From: Limisphaerales bacterium
GTDB taxonomy: Bacteria > Verrucomicrobiota > Verrucomicrobiia > Limisphaerales > AAA164-E04
Assembly (NCBI GenBank): GCA_965221075.1
Contig: OZ244865.1
Location: forward strand, 2,539,605 to 2,603,604
Length of the DNA stretch: 64,000 bases
Reading direction: 5' to 3'
Part shown: positions 2,838-60,810 of the stretch, one piece after another
Numbering within the stretch: the stretch's first letter is position 1
Layout of the letters: every line of letters begins with the position of its first letter
Position numbers and translations under genes: made by a program
The notes under the pieces: model-generated
The model's input: the letters and a program-made list of their open reading frames with translations, nothing else
Told to the model about the DNA's origin: nothing
Database searches by the model: none

Positions 2838-3018
2838 CATTTAAGCCAGTTGGATGCGTCGCAGCGCATTCCACTGTGCAGCCAGCGAGCGCAACCTGGA
2901 GCATGGACGGATCCTGCGCCTTCGCTGCCCAGGCGTTCATTCCAAACATGCAATGCGGACATGCCTCTGGAAGCGCCATGTCCGTCAGGATCCCCGCATG
3001 CAACGGCCCGGGCATCGT

Positions 3019-3412
3019 TTAGAAGTACAATTCCGGAACATGCTCTACCGCCACTTCGGGTCTGCCCTTCGGAAGCTTGTCGAACAATCGATTGAACATG
3101 GAGTCCAACCTGTTCCGCTCCAGCGGATTTGCTCTCACGTCGCCGATTCCAATTACTGAAAAGAACATCTCCAGCCCAATATATCCATGTCTATGGTATC
3201 CCCCGGAGAATTCCAAAACAAGCGCTTCCCTCCCTTCGTGCAAACAACCACATCGCATGCATCGTAGCCATCCTTTTCACTTTGTTTATTTCGACATGCG
3301 CGCTTCCTTCAAGCGCCACAATCACGCCATCATGAGAATGAAGCTTGCCTGCCTTCTTGTAGTACACATCGAGTCCGTACAATATATAATAATCGGAACA
3401 AAGAACAAGCAC
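3019..3412 (-). pseudogene. frameshifted small ORF remnant of unknown function (possibly PD-(D/E)xK/DUF559-like fold)
   Basis: Track ORFs 3191..3412 and 3019..3258 (minus) overlap and read as one protein if a frameshift near 3235-3250 is repaired (...MHAMWLFA/HEGREALVLEFSGGYHRHG...). It sits at the start of the AT-rich islet. The fold guess is weak. Confidence 0.25.
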
Positions 3413-3648
3413 AGAAAGAAGTATATGCCGCTACGGCCGTAGCGGAGATACATATATTAATTCATCGTTAGCATATAAATTACATGCGTAACTTGAAATC
3501 GTCAGTTAACCTGACGCATTCTCAATATCATCGAAATGCATCATAACTGACACTATATCCAGTTAAGACAATATGCAAAGTACAATAAAACGAGCATTAA
3601 TCTTACAAATACATTTAATTATTTGAGCAGATACACCTGAACTTACAC

Positions 3649-5214
3649 TTACTTCACTGTCACCACCAAGCCCGGCCCGCCGCAGAATCCCTTGCCACCC
3701 GGCTGGTCGGGACCGCCCACATTGCCAACATTCCCTGCCATTCCTTGAAACGACACTTTTTGAGGTTCACCAGTGTAACACGGATGACTGAACATGACAC
3801 TTGTCACTGATTCCTGCGATGTAATTTTTTTCAATTCAGAATCTTCATAACCAGCAAGAATTGTCCGCAACTTGCGAAAAGCCATAGCATTCTGCTCCTG
3901 ATCCTGAGGCATTTGCATCTTCATATAGCAGTCTTCGGCAGATTTAAAGTTCCCCAATTGAATATAAGCGAGTGCCATATTATGTAATACACCAGCACAC
4001 TTAGATGACACTTTTTTATAGCAAGAAATCGCCATTTCAAAATTCATTTGGCAGTAGTACGAGTTTCCACAATTAAACATACATGTGGAAAAACTCGAAT
4101 CTAACTCCCACGCCTTTTCGTAATCCCTAATTGCCTTTTCATGTTCATTCAAAAGTGCGTAAATATTGCCACGATTATAAAGGACCGCATAATAGTACCA
4201 TGGATGTTTCTTACGAGGGCTGTTTTCGTTAATATAATTCAAATCATTTAACGCATTATCGTAGTCCGATAGCGCTTTAGGATAGAGCTTCGCTGCTGCG
4301 TAGGCATTACCACGATAAAAGTGAATTATTAATTGTTTGCCATCCAAATCCAAACACTTCCCATAAGCAACAATCGCTTTGCATAGATGTCCGTCGTTCA
4401 TCGCCTTGTTTCCTCTTCGTAGTTGCGACTGAAAAACCTGAGACTGAGAAACCTGAGACTGAGAAACGTACGGAGCTTCCGCACGTTCAATCTTGCAAAT
4501 ACCAAGCAAATCTGGGAAAATAGTGCGCTCCGAAATATCAATCTGTTCCAGTTCATCTCGCAAGCCTTTTTTGTCATCAGCGTCAATCTCAACCTTAGAA
4601 AATTGGGTCTTTTCGATTATTGGCCGTCCAATAACGAAAACACTACGTTGGCCAAGTATGCGAAATGCTTCGTCGCCTGTTAAATCAGGTTCCCAAATCA
4701 GATAGTTCGATCCTAACCAACGCTGATCTCGGGAAAGCTCTCGTGAAAAAAGTGAATCAATACTTTCAACTTCTAATTGTCGATTTGTAATCAAGGTGTT
4801 TGGTCTTTTTTTGTCCAGAATGAACACATTGCCATTGGAATCCATTTTTTTACCGTTGCAGCTTGGATCACCACAAGCAAACCACAGCGCAACAAGCGGA
4901 TTATATGTAAAGTCGAGTAAACCTGTTGCTGCTCCAAAGTGTTGTAGCTTCGCAAGGAGTTGCATATCATCGATCGATTGATTCGAATTATTGCAGGCAA
5001 TTACTTGACGAACTCGGTCAATTAATTCATTATGATACCTGATGTACTCTTCAATAAACTGAGGATGTTCGAGGGGGATTTCATTTGCCACAAGTCTTCG
5101 AACAGCTCCCGAACACAACTTCCATTCAGCATATTCCTGTCCTCGAAAGATTTTCATGTCCAAACCTTCTGTGGCATTCTGCATGCGCTCAATATATTTG
5201 GTAAGTAACTTCAT
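3649..5214 (-). CDS. FRG-domain protein fused to TPR repeats, glycine-rich C-terminal tail
   Basis: 521-aa ORF in low-GC DNA. N-terminal KIFRGQEYAEWKLCSGAVRR and LQHFGAATGLLDFTYNPLVALWFAC match the FRG-domain signature. Residues ~270-440 show repeated TPR-like A/Y/G patterns (YRGNAYAAAKLYPKALSDYDNAL, YNRGNIYALLNEHEKAIRDYEKA, FNCGNSYYCQMNFEMAISCY). Confidence 0.85.
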   Translation of the reverse strand: MKLLTKYIERMQNATEGLDMKIFRGQEYAEWKLCSGAVRRLVANEIPLEHPQFIEEYIRYHNELIDRVRQVIACNNSNQSIDDMQLLAKLQHFGAATGLLDFTYNPLVALWFACGDPSCNGKKMDSNGNVFILDKKRPNTLITNRQLEVESIDSLFSRELSRDQRWLGSNYLIWEPDLTGDEAFRILGQRSVFVIGRPIIEKTQFSKVEIDADDKKGLRDELEQIDISERTIFPDLLGICKIERAEAPYVSQSQVSQSQVFQSQLRRGNKAMNDGHLCKAIVAYGKCLDLDGKQLIIHFYRGNAYAAAKLYPKALSDYDNALNDLNYINENSPRKKHPWYYYAVLYNRGNIYALLNEHEKAIRDYEKAWELDSSFSTCMFNCGNSYYCQMNFEMAISCYKKVSSKCAGVLHNMALAYIQLGNFKSAEDCYMKMQMPQDQEQNAMAFRKLRTILAGYEDSELKKITSQESVTSVMFSHPCYTGEPQKVSFQGMAGNVGNVGGPDQPGGKGFCGGPGLVVTVK

Positions 5215-5238
5215 TTTTAAACCATAGGAGTCTTATGG

Positions 5239-5449
5239 CTCTACCGAAAAACGTGTGGGTTAAGCGACATGGGGGTTGAGCTTGGCGAAGTCGAGCTTCC
5301 CGGCGATGAGGAAGAAGACGGTGCGGATAGTCTTGAAGCAGCGGTAGCCTCTGGCGCGACGCTTGGCGGATTGGAACAGCCCGTTGAGGGTCTCGATGAA
5401 GCCGTTGGTGCGGCAGGTTCTGGCCCAGGCTGCAATCCCATGGCCGAGC
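5239..5449 (-). mobile_element. DDE transposase C-terminal remnant (ISL3-like) with element terminus
   Basis: The minus frame after a TAG reads LGHGIAAWARTCRTNGFIETLNGLFQSAKRRARGYRCFKTIRTVFFLIAGKLDFAKLNPHVA*. The NGFIExLN...KRRARGYR...GKLD pattern is typical of ISL3-type transposase C-termini. No upstream part of the gene remains. The 21 nt after the stop (5239-5259) would be the element end. Confidence 0.55.
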
Positions 5450-5527
5450 TATCCCATGAAAGGCACGGCATGTGAGGACTCCGGGCCGATCGTAGCCTCC
5501 AGGCCAGTCCGCTATCGCACCAGGACT

Positions 5528-6322
5528 TCATTCTCGGACTCCCAGCAGGCCGGAGATGGCCTCTGCTCCTCCCCGCATCAGCGATTCCCCCACCAGCAGG
5601 GCCTGCACGCCCGCATTCCGCATCCTCTCCACATCGCCTCTGGTCCGGATTCCGCTCTCCGCTACCAGCACGATCTCGTCGCGCCGCCGATGGCCGACCA
5701 GGCTCGCGGCCAGGCGCTCTGTGACGCCCAGGTCCACCTCGAAGCGGCGAAGATCCCGGTTGTTGATCCCGATCAGATCGGCGCCCACCGCCAGGGCCCT
5801 CTCTAGCTCCGGGTGATCGTGGACCTCCACCAGCACGTCCAGGGAGGCGGATCGGGCCAGGTGGTGGAGCTGCTCCAGGAGGGGCTCCTCGAGGATGGCG
5901 GCGATGAGCAGCACCGCGTCGGCTCCGTTCTCCACCGCCTCCAGGATCTGCAGGGGATGGAGGATGAAGTCCTTGCGCAGGATGGGCAGGCTGGAAGCCT
6001 CCCTGACCGCCCGGAGGTGGGAGAGGGAGCCCTGGAAGTATCCGGCATCGGTGAGGACCGAGAGGCAGTGGGCGCCCCCCTTCTGGTACTCCCGGGCGAT
6101 CCGGGGAGGATCGTAGTCGGAGCAGATGGTTCCCGCCGAAGGGGAGGCCTTCTTGATCTCGGCGACGAGTCCCAGCGAAGCGTCGCGAAGCGCCTGGCGG
6201 AACGGCCGCCGGCCGCCCCGCGTGGCTATGCCTTCGAGCAGCGTCCCGGGCGACACTTCCCGCTGGGGCAGGGCCCGGATCTCGCGCCGCTTGTCGGCCA
6301 CGATCCGGTCCAGGATGGTCAT
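5528..6322 (-). CDS. trpC: indole-3-glycerol phosphate synthase
   Basis: 264 aa from ATG 6322 ([15 protein letters not shown]). Motifs [46 protein letters not shown] overlap with the prfB stop. Confidence 0.93.
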
Positions 6323-7459
6323 CGGGACTCCGCCGCATCGGCCGCCACCCCGGTGGGGCAGCCGGCCTGCAGCCAGACGTTGACGAAGGGATCGAGATCG
6401 CCGTCCATCACTCCCTGCACGTTGCTGGTCTCCACGCCGGTGCGCAGATCCTTGACCATCTGGTAGGGCTGGAAGACGTAGTTGCGGATCTGGTTCCCCC
6501 AGGAGACGCTTCCCTTCTCCCCGTAGAAGCGATCCATCTCCCGCTTGGCCTCGTCCTCCCGCAGGGCGTAGAGCCTCGAGGTCAGCAGCGTCATGGCGGT
6601 GGCCCGGTTCTGGTGCTGAGAGCGCTGCGTCTGGCAGGCCACCGACAGCCCGGTGGGCAGGTGGGTGACGCGCACCGCGGTCTCCACCTTGTTCACGTTC
6701 TGCCCTCCCTTGCCTCCCGAGCGGAACGTGTCCACCCGGAGATCCGAGGAGGGGATCTCCAGGTCGATGTCCTCCTCGATCTCGGCGATGACGTCGACGC
6801 TGGCAAAGCTGGTGTGGCGGCGGCTGTTGGAGTCGAAGGGGGAGATGCGCACCAGGCGATGCACCCCCCGCTCGGCCTTGCAGTAGCCGTAGGCGTTCTC
6901 CCCGGAGATGAGCACGCTGGCCTTGGAGATCCCGGTGCTCTCGCCCGGAAGCGAATCGGTGATCTCGGCCTTCCATCCCCGCCGTTCGCACCAGCGCTGG
7001 TACATGCGGAGCAGCATCACCGCCCAGTCGCAGGCCTCGGTCCCGCCCGCGCCGGCGTTGATGCTCAGGATGCAGTTCTTGCCGTCGTGGGGGCCGTCGA
7101 GCAGCATCCGCAGCTCCAGCTCCTCCACCTCGCCCTCCAGCCGCCGAACATCCCTCTCCACTTCGGCGAGCACCCCGGGCTGGGCCTCCTCCGGCTCGGC
7201 CTCTCCCAGCTCCACCATCACCGAGACGTCGTCGATGGCGGACTGGACCTGGGTCAGGGGCCCGATCCTGCGCTTGAGCCGGGATGCCTCGTCGGTGACC
7301 TCCCGGGCCCGCTCGCGGTTGTTCCAGAAGCCCTCGCCCGACATCTCCGCCTCGAGCTCCGCCTGGCGGCTCCGGATGGCCTCCGCGTCAAAGATACCTC
7401 CAGAGCCGGGACAGCTTCCCGTTCACCTCCACCAGACGCTCCTTGACAGTCTCGAACAT
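6319..7459 (-). CDS. prfB: peptide chain release factor 2 (programmed +1 frameshift)
   Basis: Frame 0 reads [26 protein letters not shown] (7459..7388). The +1 frame continues [22 protein letters not shown]... to 6319. It contains the SPF tripeptide (RISPFDS) and GGQ motif ([12 protein letters not shown]). Confidence 0.95.
7385..7402 (-). promoter_or_regulatory. RF2 autoregulatory +1 frameshift site (SD-like GGAGG, CTT TGA C)
   Basis: The minus strand reads CTGGAGGTATCTTTGACGCG. This is the canonical CUU UGA C slippery/stop context, with an internal Shine-Dalgarno-like GGAGG 3 nt upstream. Confidence 0.9.
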
Positions 7460-10408: not shown

Positions 10409-11191
10409 TCATCTGCAGGGCGAACTCCGGCCTGAGGCGGCGAGATCGGGAGATCCCATGCAATCTCCCCGAGTCCGGTCCCGGGGCAGGGACGAGCATA
10501 CCCCCTTCCCCTCGCCTCCGGCCTGGTCCGGCGCCCGGCGCAGCGGCTTCTTGTCCCGAAGCCGCTTCATCGCTTCCTCGAAGCTTCCGAAGCGTCCCGT
10601 CCGCTGCTGCAAGCCTGGATCGGCGTCCAGTCCGCCGGGCTCTTCGATATCGGACTTGTCGGCCACCGCCACGAGTCTGGCGATCCCCTCCTGAAGCGCC
10701 TCTCCTGCCGCCCGGCGCCCTTCCAGCCAGGCTCCGTGGGCCTGACGGCGCAGGCCGGGATGCCGGGCCCGGCCAGCCGCAGATCCTCCAGGGCCCTGCA
10801 GCCCATCTCCCAGGCAAACGCCATGATCTCGAGGAGAAGGTCCTCCAGCTCCTTCGAGAACCGCCTGCGGAACGCTGCGATGGCGCCGTGGCCGGAATGC
10901 TGGTTTCCGGCGATGCAGAGGAAGGCGACCGATTCGCAGGTCGCCGCTTCCAGCTTCCGGCTCGAGAACACGCCTGCTGCGAAGCCGCAGAAGATCATCC
11001 CCACAAGAGCCTGCGGGTGGCAGGCCTGAATGCCGCGTGGAATGCATGACGAGGGGATCGGGGCCAGCTCCAGGCGCTCCACGATGCACTTGACCATGCG
11101 CGCTGTAGAACGCTTGAGGGGGCCAGTCCTCCATCGGGGCAGCCAGCAGAATCTGATAGACGTGAACGTTCGGACCGAAGTCGTATCCCAT
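10409..11191 (-). pseudogene. IS1182/IS5-like transposase, N-terminal part, frameshifted and 3'-truncated
   Basis: Minus frames read MGYDFGPNVHVYQILLAAPMEDW..., then after a shift ...CHPQALVGMIFCGFAAGVFSSRKLEAATCESVAFLCIAGNQHSGHGAIAAFRRRFSKELEDLL (the DUF772/InsH-N-type motif), then ...ADKSDIEEPGGLDADPGLQQRTGRFGSFEEAMKRLRDKK. The DDE catalytic part is missing. The remnant abuts rnd. Confidence 0.7.
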
Positions 11192-11291: not shown

Positions 11292-11584
11292 CGGAACCTG
11301 TCAATGACATTGAAACGCTTTATCCATCAACTGGCTGAGCATTTCCACGCATCGGCAGGTTTGTCGCTGTGCTGGGTGCCGCCGCAGCTCACAGCGAGGA
11401 CCGGAGGCTCATGGCCCTCCACTGCAGGGGGCGCTGCCCCCTGCACCCCAGGACCACTTAGGGTAGGGAAATGGAACCGAACACATGGCGCAGCCTGTCT
11501 GTGACTATGGAGCCGAGTTGCCAGGCTAGTGCCAGCCACTGCTGTCCGGACAGCATCAACCCGAACGTTTACCAGCATAGGCCG
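11292..11584 (+). repeat. conserved non-coding element, copy 1 (full length, with 32-bp hairpin insertion)
   Basis: Aligns by eye to 53664-53919 and, over its first ~85 bp, to 60486-60570. All three copies start at the same base (cGGAACCTGTCAATGACATTGA). No conserved reading frame. Confidence 0.85.
11423..11445. repeat. palindromic hairpin TGCAGGGGGC-gct-GCCCCCTGCA (copy 1 of 2)
   Basis: Perfect 10-bp inverted repeat. It lies in a 32-bp segment present in element copy 1 but absent from copy 2. Confidence 0.9.
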
Positions 11585-11624
11585 AAGAAGCCGCACACCC
11601 TGACCGGGGCGGGGAGGGAGTCCA

Positions 11625-15160: not shown

Positions 15161-15476
15161 GTCTCCGCCAATGATGGTGGAACACCTGCCCGCCCTCATT
15201 CCGTGTTCCACTGGCAAGTTCGAGGACATGAGCACGGGCAAGGATGCCATCACGCCCCTGGGGCGACAGTCGCGAAGCGCCCCGGAGCCGGGATAGGTGC
15301 TGGGATGCCGGTCCTTGATCCCGAGGGGGCAGCCATTCCTGTCCAAAGGCTGGCGCAGGCGTCCGTCCCTACTGGCATCCGGCTCCCGAGCCGAGTCTGG
15401 ACGGGCCCGGGCATGCCGTTTCGGCTCCCGAGCCGCAGGCTGGGCTCGCCGGTTGCCCGGAATCCTCCCCCATTCG

Positions 15477-15507
15477 TCCCTGCAGGGGGCTTTGCCCCCT
15501 GCAGGGA
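15477..15507. repeat. palindromic hairpin TCCCTGCAGGGGGC-ttt-GCCCCCTGCAGGGA (copy 2 of 2)
   Basis: Perfect 14-bp inverted repeat with the same core as 11423-11445. It lies on the other side of the ATPase array. Confidence 0.9.
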
Positions 15508-15751
15508 TGAGCCGGACTTCTCCAGCCAGAGCGCAGGGAAATGCCGAGCCATCCCGTTCCGGAACCATCGGATGGATGCCCGCAATCCAACGGAAGGGGA
15601 CGTTAGGAGCGCCACGGCCTCATTGAAGCATCACGCAGCCAGCAACGGAGAAGGGGCGGGAAGCGGGCGCCGTCCGGGCATCTGAGGTTGAATCCAGCGC
15701 TACCTGATCCCAGAATGGCTCCCCGGGCCCCTGCGGCGTTCCTTCGGTTGA

Positions 15752-35913: not shown

Positions 35914-36362
35914 GGCTGTGGTAAACGAAATCGTTCGGACGGAGCGAGAGCAAGCCTAGGATTTATCCTCGTGCTGGTCAACTGCCCTTGAATCTTCGCT
36001 CGTTTCGACTGCCGTTGTCCAGCGAATTGCTGCTTCTACTCAGACAGCCGGGGATAGACCCAGCAATGGCAGCTCGGAATCCGAGACGCAGACAGACAAC
36101 ACCGTGTCGCCGTATGATCGTTGGCCATATTCCCTCCAGAGCAGTCCGGGAGCGCAGGAGGCAGCGCCCTCTGCAGAAAAGAGCTGGAAGCCTCCGGCTT
36201 CAGCAGGGGCAGCAGCGTCGCGCCCAGAATAGAAACCGTCATGCGTAGGATTGTTCCAACAATCGACGGAACCAGTGCTCGATGTCATCGACAGGGTCCA
36301 GGGCCCGGAGCTTTGGTACGCATCCAGTCAAAGCCGTAGCCCGCTTCCGGCCAAAACACGCC

Positions 36363-37532
36363 TTACAGCCAGTCGAGCAGACCTCGATCGGGCAGCACAT
36401 GGCGCAGGAATTCGTCCGCTGGCAGGCACCACACACCGTCGATCCGTGTGCGCTTCGAACCCCGATGCAGCAGGACAGCGTCCGCTTCCGGGTACTCCTC
36501 GCGAAATGTCCTCAGTGACCGGAGATCTGCGGTGTGCACTGCTCGGGAGTTCTTAACTTCGATGGCCTGCAGGCCATAGTCGCCGTACACTATGAAGTCG
36601 ACCTCGGCACCGGTCCGCGTGCGCCAGTAATACAGTACTGACCGGCGGCTCGAATAGGCCCCCCATGCACGGAGGTGCTGGGCGACCAGACCCTCCAATG
36701 CCTGCCCGTCCATCTCGTGAAGTCTGTCGAGCGGGCCCCTCGGGCGCAGGGAACGGAACACTCCCGCGTCGAACAGGTAGAACTTCTCCCGGCGTACCGT
36801 GCTGCGTTTCGCACGCTTGCGGAACACGGGCAGGCGAAAGGCGAGCAAGAGGTCTTCCAGAATGTCCAGGTAGCTTGACACGACCTTGCGCGTCACCTCG
36901 CACTCCCGCGCCACCGCAGAGACATCGAGTCGCCCTCCGTGAGAGAAGGCGATGATCTCGAGAAAGCGGGCAAAGTTCCCGACGTTGCGGGTGAGTCCTT
37001 CAGCGCGCACCTCCTGATCCAGGTAAAGGCTGGCATAGCCATCCAGGACGCCCACCGGGTCGGCCGCTCCGGTCACCAGAGGCAACAGTCCGTTTGCAAG
37101 AGCTCTAGGGAGATCGAAGCCGGGCAGTTCTGCCGCCATGAAAGGGTGCAGGGTCCGCTGGAGTGCTCTGCCGCCCAGCAGGTCCACGCCGCCCTGTCGC
37201 AGCTCTCGCGCACTGGATCCCACCAGAACGAACCGTGGCGGACTCGGCTCCTCGAGAACTGCATGGACGACGGTGAGAAGTTCCGGGACTCTCTGAATCT
37301 CGTCGATAACCACGGTAGCCGCTCTCGACGACCCTGCTAGTAGCTTGCGAAGCCGTTCGGGCCTCGCTTGCAAACTGCGATGCAGCTGAGGCTCAAGCAG
37401 GTCCAGGAACAAGGCATTGGGAAGCTGGTGCCGCGTCCAGATGGTTTTTCCAGTACCACGCGGACCGAACAGAAAGCAGCTCTGTGCCGGTATGGAGAAA
37501 AACCTCCTTACTACTTCCATTTTGCGCCCCAA
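36363..37532 (-). CDS. AAA_14-type ATPase with C-terminal DUF4143 (PD-(D/E)xK-like) domain
   Basis: 389 aa. Walker A LFGPRGTGKT, Walker B VVIDEIQRVPEL. C-terminal GAEVDFIVYGDYGLQAIEVKNS is a D...E-x-K nuclease-like motif. Confidence 0.88.
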   Translation of the reverse strand: MGRKMEVVRRFFSIPAQSCFLFGPRGTGKTIWTRHQLPNALFLDLLEPQLHRSLQARPERLRKLLAGSSRAATVVIDEIQRVPELLTVVHAVLEEPSPPRFVLVGSSARELRQGGVDLLGGRALQRTLHPFMAAELPGFDLPRALANGLLPLVTGAADPVGVLDGYASLYLDQEVRAEGLTRNVGNFARFLEIIAFSHGGRLDVSAVARECEVTRKVVSSYLDILEDLLLAFRLPVFRKRAKRSTVRREKFYLFDAGVFRSLRPRGPLDRLHEMDGQALEGLVAQHLRAWGAYSSRRSVLYYWRTRTGAEVDFIVYGDYGLQAIEVKNSRAVHTADLRSLRTFREEYPEADAVLLHRGSKRTRIDGVWCLPADEFLRHVLPDRGLLDWL

Positions 37533-51774: not shown

Positions 51775-52824
51775 CTACCTGTATATTAATGGATCTCCAT
51801 CCTTTAATTGGGATCTATGTTCGGCAATCACAGGAAAACCACGTCCCATGTTGGCGAAATTATCAATCGGTATCTCATTAAATATCCGGAAACTCATCTC
51901 CTCCGCCTCCTCCCTGCTAGGCCTCTGTTCTCCGTGCAAAAACGAGTATTTGGAACCATAGAGAGCAGCCATCATGTATTGCTTTGTCGATTCAGCTCTT
52001 TCTCCCCATGTAACACCTTCGTTGTTCCATATTTCATTTGGATCGCGTAATAAGGCTTGGCTATGCACCAGCAAATCGTCAAACGCCTCTATCACCAGAA
52101 TAGTGTTGTCAGCGTATCCATACTCGTTGATTATGTCATATACCATTTCAAACTCCTCTGTAAATCTTAGCTTGCCGTCGTAGAAAGTCTTTAATTTGGA
52201 ATGATTGGCAACCATGCCCCTTGCCTTCACAGCCGGAAACATTGCGGCCTCGTATTCCGATCTATACTGCTGCATTGCTTCATTGTATGCATCGGCCATA
52301 TCCCCAAATTCAAACAACGTCTTGACTCCGTCGTTTCTAGCGGCATCCATATAATCCACAAAATTTGGCTGCTGTAGCTGTATATCTGGCAGTTCAAACG
52401 CTTCTAGAGAAAAGAAAATTGTCGGATGGTGCTTCTTCTCGTACGGGAAATTCTCGATCCATTCCTTTCTACTTTCCAACCATTGCTCTTTTTCGATCTT
52501 CTCATTTCGAATTTCATCAACATATTCTTTGTTATCGCGCAGCCATTTTTCATCGTCTTCAATTCTTCTTTGGGCCTCTTTATTTTTATCTGCAATGGTT
52601 TTTTTGCGAGACTCTTGCATTGCTTTTAATGCTGCACCTAAAGGATTGGCTGCGCTGTCGGATTCGTCCCTGTTAGTATTTATAGAAATTGCGCCAGAAA
52701 TAATTTTTTTGTCGCTCGATTCCCGTATGCCGTCCGATGCGCTATCATCGTTAACTGGTCTGAAAAAAATAAGAGCAATCCAGATCAAGGCTCCCCCAAA
52801 ACATGCCAGCACTATATACTTCAT
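51775..52824 (-). CDS. hypothetical membrane-anchored protein with charged coiled-coil segment
   Basis: 349-aa ORF in low-GC DNA. N-terminal TM segment MKYIVLACFGGALIWIALIFF and a K/E-rich helix (KNKEAQRRIEDDEKWLRDNKEYVDEIRNEKIEKEQWLESRKEW). No known motif. Confidence 0.7.
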   Translation of the reverse strand: MKYIVLACFGGALIWIALIFFRPVNDDSASDGIRESSDKKIISGAISINTNRDESDSAANPLGAALKAMQESRKKTIADKNKEAQRRIEDDEKWLRDNKEYVDEIRNEKIEKEQWLESRKEWIENFPYEKKHHPTIFFSLEAFELPDIQLQQPNFVDYMDAARNDGVKTLFEFGDMADAYNEAMQQYRSEYEAAMFPAVKARGMVANHSKLKTFYDGKLRFTEEFEMVYDIINEYGYADNTILVIEAFDDLLVHSQALLRDPNEIWNNEGVTWGERAESTKQYMMAALYGSKYSFLHGEQRPSREEAEEMSFRIFNEIPIDNFANMGRGFPVIAEHRSQLKDGDPLIYR

Positions 52825-53014: not shown

Positions 53015-53358
53015 CTAGTCACGGTTCCTGCTCATGTTTCTTGCAGACCGTATCCGCACGCGCCTTCCAGTGACTACGATGACTGCGACTTCGTCCATGG
53101 CTTGTTCATGGAGCTCGATCAGTGTCTGGATGGCCTCCGCTCTCTCTTCAGGTGTCATACCGACGAGACGCACGATTCAGGGATGCGGAAGTCCCCGTAG
53201 GAAGACGAGTTCCCCAAATCCTTGCCCTCTGTGACGAGCAGCGAATCGTCGATGGCTTGCGGACACTGATCACGCACGGAGAGCACATCGTGCCCGAGCT
53301 CCAGAAGAGCTCTGCGTAACGGCACAGACTCGGCGCATTCGTCGATCAGAAACTTCAC
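53015..53358 (-). pseudogene. DUF5615 (PIN-like toxin partner of DUF433), inactivated
   Basis: MKFLIDECAESVPLRRALLELGHDVLSVRD... is a typical DUF5615 N-terminus. The frame is lost at GATTTGGGG (about 53212-53221) and there is an in-frame TGA at 53177-53179. The conserved C-terminus MTPEERAEAIQTLIELHEQAMDEVAVIVVTGRRVRIRS is readable in a third frame. Confidence 0.7.
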
Positions 53359-53612
53359 GAAGTCTCTCGAACGTCGATGCGGTCATGGACTTGCTCGCCG
53401 ACCAACAGGCGATGGGCGAAGAGCAGGCATGCCTGGACATCCCCCGGTTCGAGGAACGGGTAGTGCTCAAGCAGGTCCTCGACTGTCTCTCCAGCCGCGA
53501 GATTGCCCAAAACATGCTCCACGGCTATCCGCATGCCTCGGATGATCGGCTTTCCGCCGAAGATGTCGGCTCGGAACGTGATGCGGTCGAGCAGCTCATC
53601 CTCTTGAGTCAT
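53355..53612 (-). CDS. DUF433 antitoxin-like protein
   Basis: 85 aa from ATG 53612 (GGAGGAG 6 nt upstream; the track start GTG 53663 is less likely). FGGKPIIRGMRIAVEHVLGNLAAGETVEDLLEHYPFLEPGDVQACLLFA is the DUF433 signature. Confidence 0.8.
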   Translation of the reverse strand: MTQEDELLDRITFRADIFGGKPIIRGMRIAVEHVLGNLAAGETVEDLLEHYPFLEPGDVQACLLFAHRLLVGEQVHDRIDVRETS

Positions 53613-53663: not shown

Positions 53664-53919
53664 CGGAACCTGTCAATGACATTGAGACACTTGATCCGTC
53701 AATCGATTGAGCATTTCTACGCATCGACAGGGTTGTCACAGTGCTGGCTGACGACGCAGCTCCTAGCCAGGTGCGGAGGGCCGGGACAACTTAGGGAAGG
53801 GAAATAGGAATTGAACACATGGCGCAGGCTGTCTGTGGCTATGGAGCCGAGTTGCCATGGCTAGTGCCAGCCACGGCTGTCTGGACAGCACAAACCCACA
53901 AGTTATTCAGTAGAGGCTG
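53664..53919 (+). repeat. conserved non-coding element, copy 2
   Basis: Aligns to 11292-11584 throughout, minus the 32-bp hairpin segment and plus 1 nt at ccatgg. Twin palindromes at 53673-53685 and 53699-53710. Confidence 0.85.
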
Positions 53920-54000
53920 CCAAATCTGCCTCGCTCATCGCTCGCAGAATACAGGGTGGGCAGGTGTCTCGCCATCATTGGCCGAGACGGTTCCGGCATT

Positions 54001-60485: not shown

Positions 60486-60570
60486 CGGAACCTGTCAATG
60501 ACATTGAAAAACATGATCCTTCAATTGATTGAGCATTAACACGCATCGACAGGTCTGTCACTGGCCAGAC
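60486..60570 (+). repeat. conserved non-coding element, copy 3 (5' ~85 bp only)
   Basis: cGGAACCTGTCAATGACATTGAAAAACATGATCCTTCAATTGATTGAGCATTAACACGCATCGACAGGTCTGTCAC aligns to the first part of copies 1 and 2. Confidence 0.8.
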
Positions 60571-60810
60571 CTAAGGCCACCGCGCCACTCCTTGACTCTA
60601 CTACTTGAATCATTCACACCTCTTTATACATCAACCGAGGGCGTGGACTCACAGATTCTCAACTGCCACAATCCGTCACGGTAAAGAAACGTTCAAATGA
60701 TCACCAACAACATAACAGTCCTCCATGACTCATAGAGCTCTTGGGTATCTGACACCGATCTGTTTGACCGAATTAACAATCGACCGGGCGATTCCCATAT
60801 TTGACGTGCA

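Follow-up and report, generated by a model that had tools for sequence, protein, structure and literature searches.

Copies of the repeat and their coordinates

The present study concerns a short non-coding repeat in a stretch of 64,000 nucleotides (nt) from the genome of a Limisphaerales bacterium (contig OZ244865.1), hereafter called the window, in which positions are counted from the first letter. The first copy of this repeat (copy 1) occupies positions 11292-11584 on the plus strand (293 nt), and its right end meets the start of a 1450-bp ATPase tandem unit exactly, at 11585. In the original prediction, the repeat was described as a three-copy element, the copies of which lie in the same orientation and begin at the same base; this description was confirmed by an identical 22-mer (cGGAACCTGTCAATGACATTGA) at 11292, 53664, and 60486, for which 0 matches were expected from shuffled sequences. 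Copy 2 (53664-53919, plus strand) is a conserved unit of 256 nt that can be aligned with copy 1 over ~256-293 nt at an identity of ~82%, in agreement with the lengths proposed for these two copies, whereas copy 3 (60486-60564, plus strand), the tip of which is the same as those of copies 1 and 2, comprises only the first ~75-79 nt of the element and not the proposed ~85 nt. The left flanks of the copies are unrelated, as had been noticed previously.

The count of three proved to be an underestimate. A mismatch-tolerant search revealed a diverged copy on the minus strand at 36029-36300 (copy 4; ~55-75% identity; tip TGGACCCTGTCGATGACATCGAG), which sits between a DUF4143 ATPase gene, matching the defense candidate PDC-S01, and an RDD-family gene. 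Past the window end, where the sequence was read from contigs of the same organism with 99.9-100% identity (L026 1-19432, in reverse orientation, and L014 12878-20496), copy 5 was found at L014 18306-18597 (~66.2 kb in window coordinates, ~2.2 kb to the right of the window); its flank runs for 35 nt to the stop codon of a YgjP/SprT gene. Furthermore, a profile of copies 1, 2, 4, and 5 detected a degenerate fragment at 15410-15566, which resembles the middle of the element and is centered on a GC palindrome at 15480-15504, and the strand of which is ambiguous (19.2 bits on the minus strand and 11.3 bits on the plus strand). At least five copies and one fragment are thus present within ~70 kb, and 4 of the 5 copies are located at borders of GC content and of accessory islets. 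No additional copy was detected in the sequence extended to 9.4 kb beyond a type I restriction-modification (R-M) system on the right, the element was absent from the viral contigs and plasmids searched, and a metagenome scan with its conserved 3' block returned two chance matches only.

Internal structure and sequence conservation

The two palindromes that had been described, TCAAT-gac-ATTGA (palindrome 1) and TCAAT-cg-ATTGA (palindrome 2), and the CCTGTC...GRCAGG bracket around them were all present. Changes that preserve pairing, which had been claimed for these structures, were found at one position in each palindrome, namely, A-T to G-C in palindrome 1 of copies 4 and 5 (retained in copy 4 as TCGAT-gac-ATCGA) and T-A to C-G in palindrome 2 of copy 1, whereas the bracket helix showed no covariation and was broken in copies 4 and 5. 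The indel between copies 1 and 2, previously given as 32 nt, is ~39 nt in length, and its core is a 25-nt GC palindrome of the form CTGCAGGGGGC-NNN-GCCCCCTGCAG (CTGCAGGGGGCGCTGCCCCCTGCAC in copy 1, 11422-11446, strand unassigned). The same palindrome is also found solitarily at 15480-15504, and at L014 18435-18459; with its occurrences within the repeat and outside it, the palindrome could represent an element distinct from the repeat and similar to repetitive extragenic palindromic sequences.

Conservation is distributed unevenly along the element. For copies 1 and 2, the identity falls from 93% at the tip to 62% in their middle part. A 3' block of ~80 nt (at ~11476-11556 in copy 1) shows 89-91% identity in copies 1, 2, and 5, whereas the identity to the other copies drops to 22-67% over the 5' half of copy 5. 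The pattern is that of a mosaic, with copies 1 and 2 being the closest in the 5' half and copies 2 and 5 in the 3' block and tail, and copies 1, 2, and 5 lose their likeness at one common position, just past the 3' block.

The absence of a conserved reading frame was borne out: 1-nt indels shift the small open reading frames (ORFs) between copies, and most substitutions would alter amino acids. A small protein was ruled out because the frames of these ORFs differ between copies. The sigma-54 GG-N10-GC spacing that had been noticed on the minus strand is correct in copy 1, whereas copies 2 and 5 each have one extra base and copy 5 reads TGGTAC; a sigma-54 promoter (TGGCAC-N5-TTGC) was rejected because its spacing is not kept among copies.

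Correspondence of the sharp edge to an IS3-family terminus

A total of 185,579 species genomes (one per species, the source genome being outside this collection) were scanned for the 21-mer GGAMCCTGTCRATGACATYGA, and 12 loci were obtained versus ~2 expected by chance according to our own estimate. Nine of these loci, all from metagenome-assembled genomes of Acidobacteriota, Chloroflexota, and Proteobacteria, carry a 26-27-nt tip (CGGAACCTGTCAATGACATTGAGACAC) followed by the C terminus of a transposase encoded on the reverse strand. The sequence CGGAACCTGTCAATGACATTGAGACAC, which is the first 27 nt of the element (11292-11318 in copy 1), corresponds to one terminal inverted repeat of an insertion sequence (IS) of ~1.7 kb that belongs to the IS3 family, and copy 2 is the same as the IS tip at 27 of 27 positions, the tip base included. 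The IS at locus L010 encodes OrfA with a helix-turn-helix (HTH) motif and OrfB with rve/rve_3 domains; this OrfB scored 175.7 bits against the NCBIfam model NF033516, 'IS3 family transposase' (cut-off 160), and its plasmid homologues carry the annotation IS3 family transposase. More than 8000 OrfB homologues were found in metagenomes, the top 120 of which were all at least 79% identical, and the parent-type IS is abundant and horizontally spread.

The limits of this IS were established from independent insertions, and run from CGGAACC... to ...GGCAGG(G/A)AGGG over ~1.7 kb, with the opposite end reading GTGTCTCAGCTATCTTGGCAGG(G/A)AGGG in three independent copies. Target duplications of 2-3 bp were observed (TTG in L004 and CAT in L010), and the deletion of the IS together with one CAT from L010 gives back a continuous kinase reading frame in our own reading of the frame. 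Five further insertions of a variant IS (1707 bp, tip CGGAAGCTGTCAAGGACATTGAGACAC) have 2-3 bp repeats and the same left boundary, the duplications of the variant across L020-L024 being CA, CA, GC, and GGG. The duplications set the outermost bases of the IS as the C of CGGAACC on one side and the final G on the other, so that the IS tip coincides with the edge base of the window element. The sharp 5' edge of the repeat thus agrees to the base with the outer end of an IS3-family terminal inverted repeat, and very distant phyla have one IS end in common at this resolution. The tip of the variant IS (TCAAGGACATTGA) carries a broken palindrome, TCAAG-gac-ATTGA, which indicates that the palindrome is not required for the IS end.

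The suggestion that the repeat is the terminus of an uncharacterized mobile element was, therefore, correct with respect to a mobile-element terminus, whereas the end is that of a classical IS3-family element. It had also been anticipated that the copies may be part of a known IS, with the 5' untranslated region of an IS1182-like element as an example. The first 27 nt are indeed a known IS end; however, this end is of the IS3 family and not of the adjacent IS1182 fragment, and the IS1182 candidate was ruled out because the other copies have no adjoining IS1182 and the tip belongs to the IS3-family element.

The likeness to the IS does not extend far inward. The ~20 nt that follow the 27-mer loosely resemble the subterminal part of the opposite IS end (GAGACACTT...AATT.G), and the interior of the element past these ~20 nt (about 230-260 nt) is unrelated to the IS. 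In complete ISs, the transposase frame comes within ~10-130 nt of this tip. Ends of this IS that are solo or truncated were found in other genomes (L006 and L012), and, in an acidobacterial copy of the IS (L009, ~335-365), a nearly identical version of the first 9-10 nt of the tip stands in front of it (GAGAACCTGTC|GGAACCTGTC).

A two-ended unit at copy 2

Self-matches aside, the sequence in the window that best matches both IS ends lies at 53964-53995, to the right of copy 2, and reads CGGAACCGTCTCGGCCAATGATGGCGAGACAC on the minus strand. Its combined score was 51 versus a background of 22.2 +/- 3.8, equal to that of the copy 4 tip; the tip of this partner fits the IS end that carries CGGAACC, and its inner part fits the opposite IS end. 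Copy 2 thereby forms a 332-bp ORF-less unit (53664-53995) with inverted repeats at 53664-53690 and 53964-53995, the left end of which matches one IS terminus and the right end of which is a degenerate match to the other. This anatomy is that of a MITE (miniature inverted-repeat transposable element).

Other candidate ends were rejected. A weak 'GGGGCGGGGAGGG' end to the right of copy 1 is part of the ATPase tandem unit, and the match of a potential inverted partner past the ATPase array (15410-15566) consists mostly of the palindrome. Copy 3 and the 43-nt block on its right do not form a contiguous end of IS-N, a different IS3-family element described below, because IS-N has TGG...TAAGG ends of its own and no more similarity was found upstream of the 43-nt block than chance would give.

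Probable origin as non-autonomous IS3-family derivatives

Since its sharp edge corresponds to an IS3-family terminal repeat, the element most likely consists of transposase-less IS derivatives or fragments, and it most probably represents an already-known kind of element, a MITE or an IS-end relic of IS3-family origin. Based on the identity of the tip with the IS3-family inverted repeat, the non-coding nature of the unit, its copy number, and the partner repeat of copy 2, we consider it probable that the repeats are lineage-specific, non-autonomous (MITE-like) derivatives of an IS3-family element, ~260-330 bp in length, non-coding, and present in multiple copies. Among the features of an autonomous IS, the terminal-repeat tip was found, whereas orfA/orfB and a target duplication of ~3 bp were not; among those of a MITE, a size of 256-332 bp, the lack of coding capacity, and multiple dispersed copies were found, inverted repeats at both ends were seen in copy 2 but not at the common right boundary of copies 1, 4, and 5, and a matching autonomous IS is present in other phyla.

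It is customary to assign a MITE to a parent IS on the basis of terminal repeats that are almost identical, and MITEPsy1/ISPsy2 and MITEPsy2/ISPsy30 are bacterial MITEs that were paired with their parent ISs by these repeats (PMC3189936). Similar to bacterial MITEs, the element is short, non-coding, and multi-copy, has a terminal repeat nearly identical to that of an autonomous IS, and is located in intergenic regions and inside other mobile elements; it differs from them in that both repeats are present in one copy only, a target duplication is lacking, and an internal block is over-conserved for filler DNA. With the ~1.7 kb IS3-family IS itself (L004, L010, L011, and L020-L024; NF033516), it has in common the 27-nt terminal repeat with its exact tip base, and the ~20 subterminal nt and the copy 2 partner resemble the opposite IS end, whereas the element has no transposase, an unrelated interior of ~230-260 nt, and no target duplications.

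In IS3-family elements, the tips of the terminal repeats are bound and cleaved by the OrfAB (DDE/rve) transposase. A related OrfAB transposase acting in trans could have moved two-ended units such as copy 2, and later decay may have left most copies one-ended, truncated, or diverged, probably as immobile relics today; both the mobilization in trans and the decay would belong to the past. The positions at islet borders are best explained by mobile DNA that accumulated and became nested in a permissive region prone to recombination. The perfect 22-nt tip in three copies, the interiors of which are 18-38% different, would fit selection for mobility in the lineage that generated these copies. Concerning annotation, an element of this kind next to defense genes should not be reported as a new vehicle of defense islands or as a new RNA.

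Several results weigh against this interpretation. A recognizable second inverted repeat is present in copy 2 only, where it lies 44 nt past the point at which copies 1, 2, and 5 diverge; copies 1, 4, and 5 have a single end, and another IS truncates copy 3. The common right boundary of copies 1, 2, and 5 carries no sequence resembling an inverted repeat, and the similarity there was not above that of shuffled controls. No target-site duplication was detected at any copy in the window (at copy 2, CAC versus GCA), and tblastn with OrfA and OrfB revealed no trace of either in or beside any copy. Within the ~83 kb of the 3.3-Mb source genome that were read, neither an autonomous IS with these ends nor a matching IS3 transposase was found, and a search for the parent IS in the source genome through OrfB homologues brought up thousands of closer metagenomic relatives. 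The sole IS3-family element present, IS-N, encodes an OrfB that is only 26% identical to that of the L010 element, and its ends differ. In addition, the high identity of the 3' block in contrast to the low identity of the 5' half of copy 5, and the mosaic that results, are not predicted by the neutral decay of a MITE; the mosaic suggests that the copies underwent gene conversion or that the 3' block is under a constraint of its own, with a protein-binding site, a recombination site, and a small RNA being candidates for the latter.

Alternative explanations

One alternative regards the ~290-bp unit as the long terminal region of a cargo-carrying, transposase-less transposon, with the tip facing outward, the conserved module facing inward, and defense or ATPase genes between two ends. 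The three-copy ATPase array, SIR2-HerA, and YgjP with the type I R-M system, which lie to the right of copies 1, 3, and 5, respectively, are all transcribed toward the element, the conserved units of copies 1 and 5 end alike, with ~35-41 nt left to the stop codon of the gene that converges on them, and an element-like fragment is present on the far side of the ATPase array. Nevertheless, this fragment (15410-15566) is dominated by the palindrome, is ambiguous in orientation, and has no recognizable tip, and no inverted partner was found for copies 3, 4, and 5 in the sequence covered, which included 9.4 kb beyond the R-M system. The polarity of the copies relative to the islets is not consistent either: at copies 2 and 4, the tip points toward the islet, which is thereby placed outside it, and at copy 3 toward core genes, and the interval between copies 2 and 3 contains core genes, such as that for IF3. 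Target duplications were not found, and the ATPases match KAP/AAA models weakly. A recombinase or transposase (TnsB/TniA/integrase), for which a search past the window end had been suggested, was not found up to 18 kb to the right, and the gene tables for 9 kb to the left of the window did not list a gene of this type either. Accordingly, an adjoining TnsB/TniA and an inverted partner enclosing the cargo, which characterize Tn7-like and Tn5053-like ends, were both absent. We consider such a transposon to be unlikely, and there was nothing to show the delivery of defense cargo that had been proposed for the element.

Mobile insertion cassettes, or transporter ISs, consist of IS ends around passenger genes with or without a transposase, MIC231 of the IS231 group being an example. 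The present element is similar to these cassettes in that an IS-type end lies beside accessory genes (the ATPase array, SIR2-HerA, and the type I R-M system), and differs from them in the lack of a convincing second inverted end around these gene sets and in its inconsistent polarity.

The mosaic of identities, which indicates exchange between copies, the location of 4 of the 5 copies at GC-content or islet borders, and the break of copies 1 and 5 at the same internal position are also consistent with the copies being dispersed sites of homology or recombination, namely, hotspot markers, for the gain, loss, and exchange of islets, in which case the origin of the tip from an IS would be historical only. 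However, no recombinase gene adjoins the copies, the common breakpoint has no conserved crossover-type core, and the evidence comes from one genome; this explanation appears quite improbable. A similarly doubtful proposal is that the repeat is an IS3-tipped, trans-mobilizable module in which the conserved 3' block (89-91% identity, versus 22-62% in the remainder) has a function of its own, as a protein-binding or recombination platform for the capture and exchange of accessory or defense segments or as a small RNA. If true, the module would represent a new type of one-ended carrier or anchor for defense islets in this lineage. The 3' block and the recurrent breakpoint are, in this respect, the point of wider interest, and the repeats could take part in islet turnover.

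The copies may, furthermore, be solo ends that arose by deletion from a full-length native IS3-family element with a non-coding end of ~260 nt, and that were never mobile as short units. Truncated ISs abound in the region, which contains a fragment of IS1182 (10567-11097) and remnants of ISL3 (5233-5443) and IS-N (60560-60602), and the solo or truncated ends in L006 and L012 illustrate the same outcome for the IS itself. On the other hand, independent deletions would not stop at one position in copies 1, 2, and 5, no coding trace of OrfA or OrfB lies beside any copy, the ends of copy 2 are just 332 bp apart, and the transposase frame of complete ISs reaches to ~10-130 nt from the tip, all of which make an origin by deletion very unlikely.

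Regarding RNA, the element resembles transposon-end RNAs (the omega RNA of IscB/TnpB, which corresponds to HEARO in Rfam, and the bridge RNA of IS110) in being a non-coding module of 200-300 nt that starts at a transposon boundary, and is unlike them in having no Rfam match, no nearby IscB, TnpB, or IS110 gene, and no covariation; to our knowledge, no RNA component has been described for the DDE-type IS3 elements. Searches for omega-RNA/HEARO and the other families of Rfam 15 gave 0 matches at the gathering threshold and noise only at E<=10. Although several G-T juxtapositions in the predicted helices pair only as plus-strand RNA, copies 4 and 5 keep palindrome 1 paired by a change on both sides from A-T to G-C, and the strongly conserved 3' block holds three hairpin-forming palindromes, a structured non-coding RNA or cis-regulatory leader on the plus strand, as raised in the original prediction, is highly improbable in view of these Rfam results, RNAalifold covariation terms of +0.62 and -0.62 kcal/mol on the two strands (effectively zero, with the low power of 4-5 sequences), a bracket helix with 0 double changes that is broken in 2 of 5 copies and only one covarying pair in each palindrome, folding z-scores versus shuffles of -1.5 and +0.15 (whole units) and between -2.6 and +0.8 (3' block), minimum-energy folds that are not alike between copies, the lack of matches, within the units or in their surroundings, to the consensus of a sigma-70 promoter or an intrinsic terminator, a sigma-54 spacing that is not conserved, upstream flanks that are unrelated and hence provide no common promoter outside the unit, and the explanation of palindrome 1 as part of an IS end bound by the transposase.

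The surrounding mobile-DNA region

The ~90-kb region around the MITE-like repeats is a nest of mobile DNA that contains IS1182, ISL3, two IS3 types, a group II intron, SIR2-HerA, a type I R-M system, and the candidates PDC-S01 and PDC-S15. Copy 3 is cut at approximately its position 75 by the terminal 43 nt of IS-N (60560-60602, plus strand), which are 95% identical to L026 5412-5454. In L026, this 43-nt stretch runs on into fragments of the OrfB and OrfA of IS-N (5412-6790), and this fuller remnant adjoins the 3' end of the group II intron. The OrfB fragment of IS-N scored 129.8 bits against NF033516, and the ends of IS-N are TGGCCAGACC..TAAGG and TGGACAGTTTGCTAAGG. An island-end sequence that appeared to be common to 60.6 kb of the window and 6.8 kb of L026 was not significant.

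The island to the right of copy 3 consists, in order, of SIR2-HerA, an ISL3 transposase, copy 5, YgjP/SprT, and the type I R-M system, which comprises HsdR, an HsdS of 638 aa, and an HsdM of 922 aa. These are followed by an excisionase/MAD1-like HTH protein, IS-N, the reverse transcriptase of the group II intron (TIGR04416, 319.8 bits), an IS1182 fragment, a second DUF4143 ATPase, and a T2SSE-type ATPase. The fragments of IS1182-family (DUF772) transposases at 10567-11097 and L026 2875-3435 are 68% identical at the DNA level and lie near copies of the repeat or IS3 ends. The ISL3 remnant at 5233-5443 is a 3' end of 211 bp with 91% identity to L014 16910-17120, and the low-GC islet beside it (3000-5200, 40-44% GC) encodes an FRG-TPR protein that matches the PADLOC candidate PDC-S15.

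To the right of copy 1, from 11585 to ~15400 on the minus strand, are three tandem copies of a gene for a P-loop ATPase of 470-483 aa, with a unit of ~1450 bp and 74-91% identity between copies, the third of which appears to be truncated at its 5' end. These ATPases matched the Pfam models KAP_NTPase, AAA_22, and AAA_16 weakly, and had no PADLOC or NCBIfam match. Directly beside copy 4, the DUF4143/AAA_14 ATPase encoded at 36363-37532 matched PDC-S01 of PADLOC with an E value of 4e-51, and is located at the margin of a segment of lower GC content (36.3-39.3 kb) that holds two ORFs of unknown function. To the left of copy 2, at 53015-53612, a DUF433 gene precedes short PIN/DUF5615-like ORFs that appear to be broken, probably a decayed toxin-antitoxin pair, and these ORFs are adjoined by an orphan gene with a GC content of 42% (51775-52824; 349 aa, no family match). 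Elsewhere in the window, the presence of several sulfatases and of a bacterial microcompartment (BMC) cluster would suggest a planctomycete-like host; this cluster, at ~29-33 kb (L017 12237-16755), comprises BMC shell proteins, PTAC, acetate kinase, an aldolase, and a DeoR regulator.

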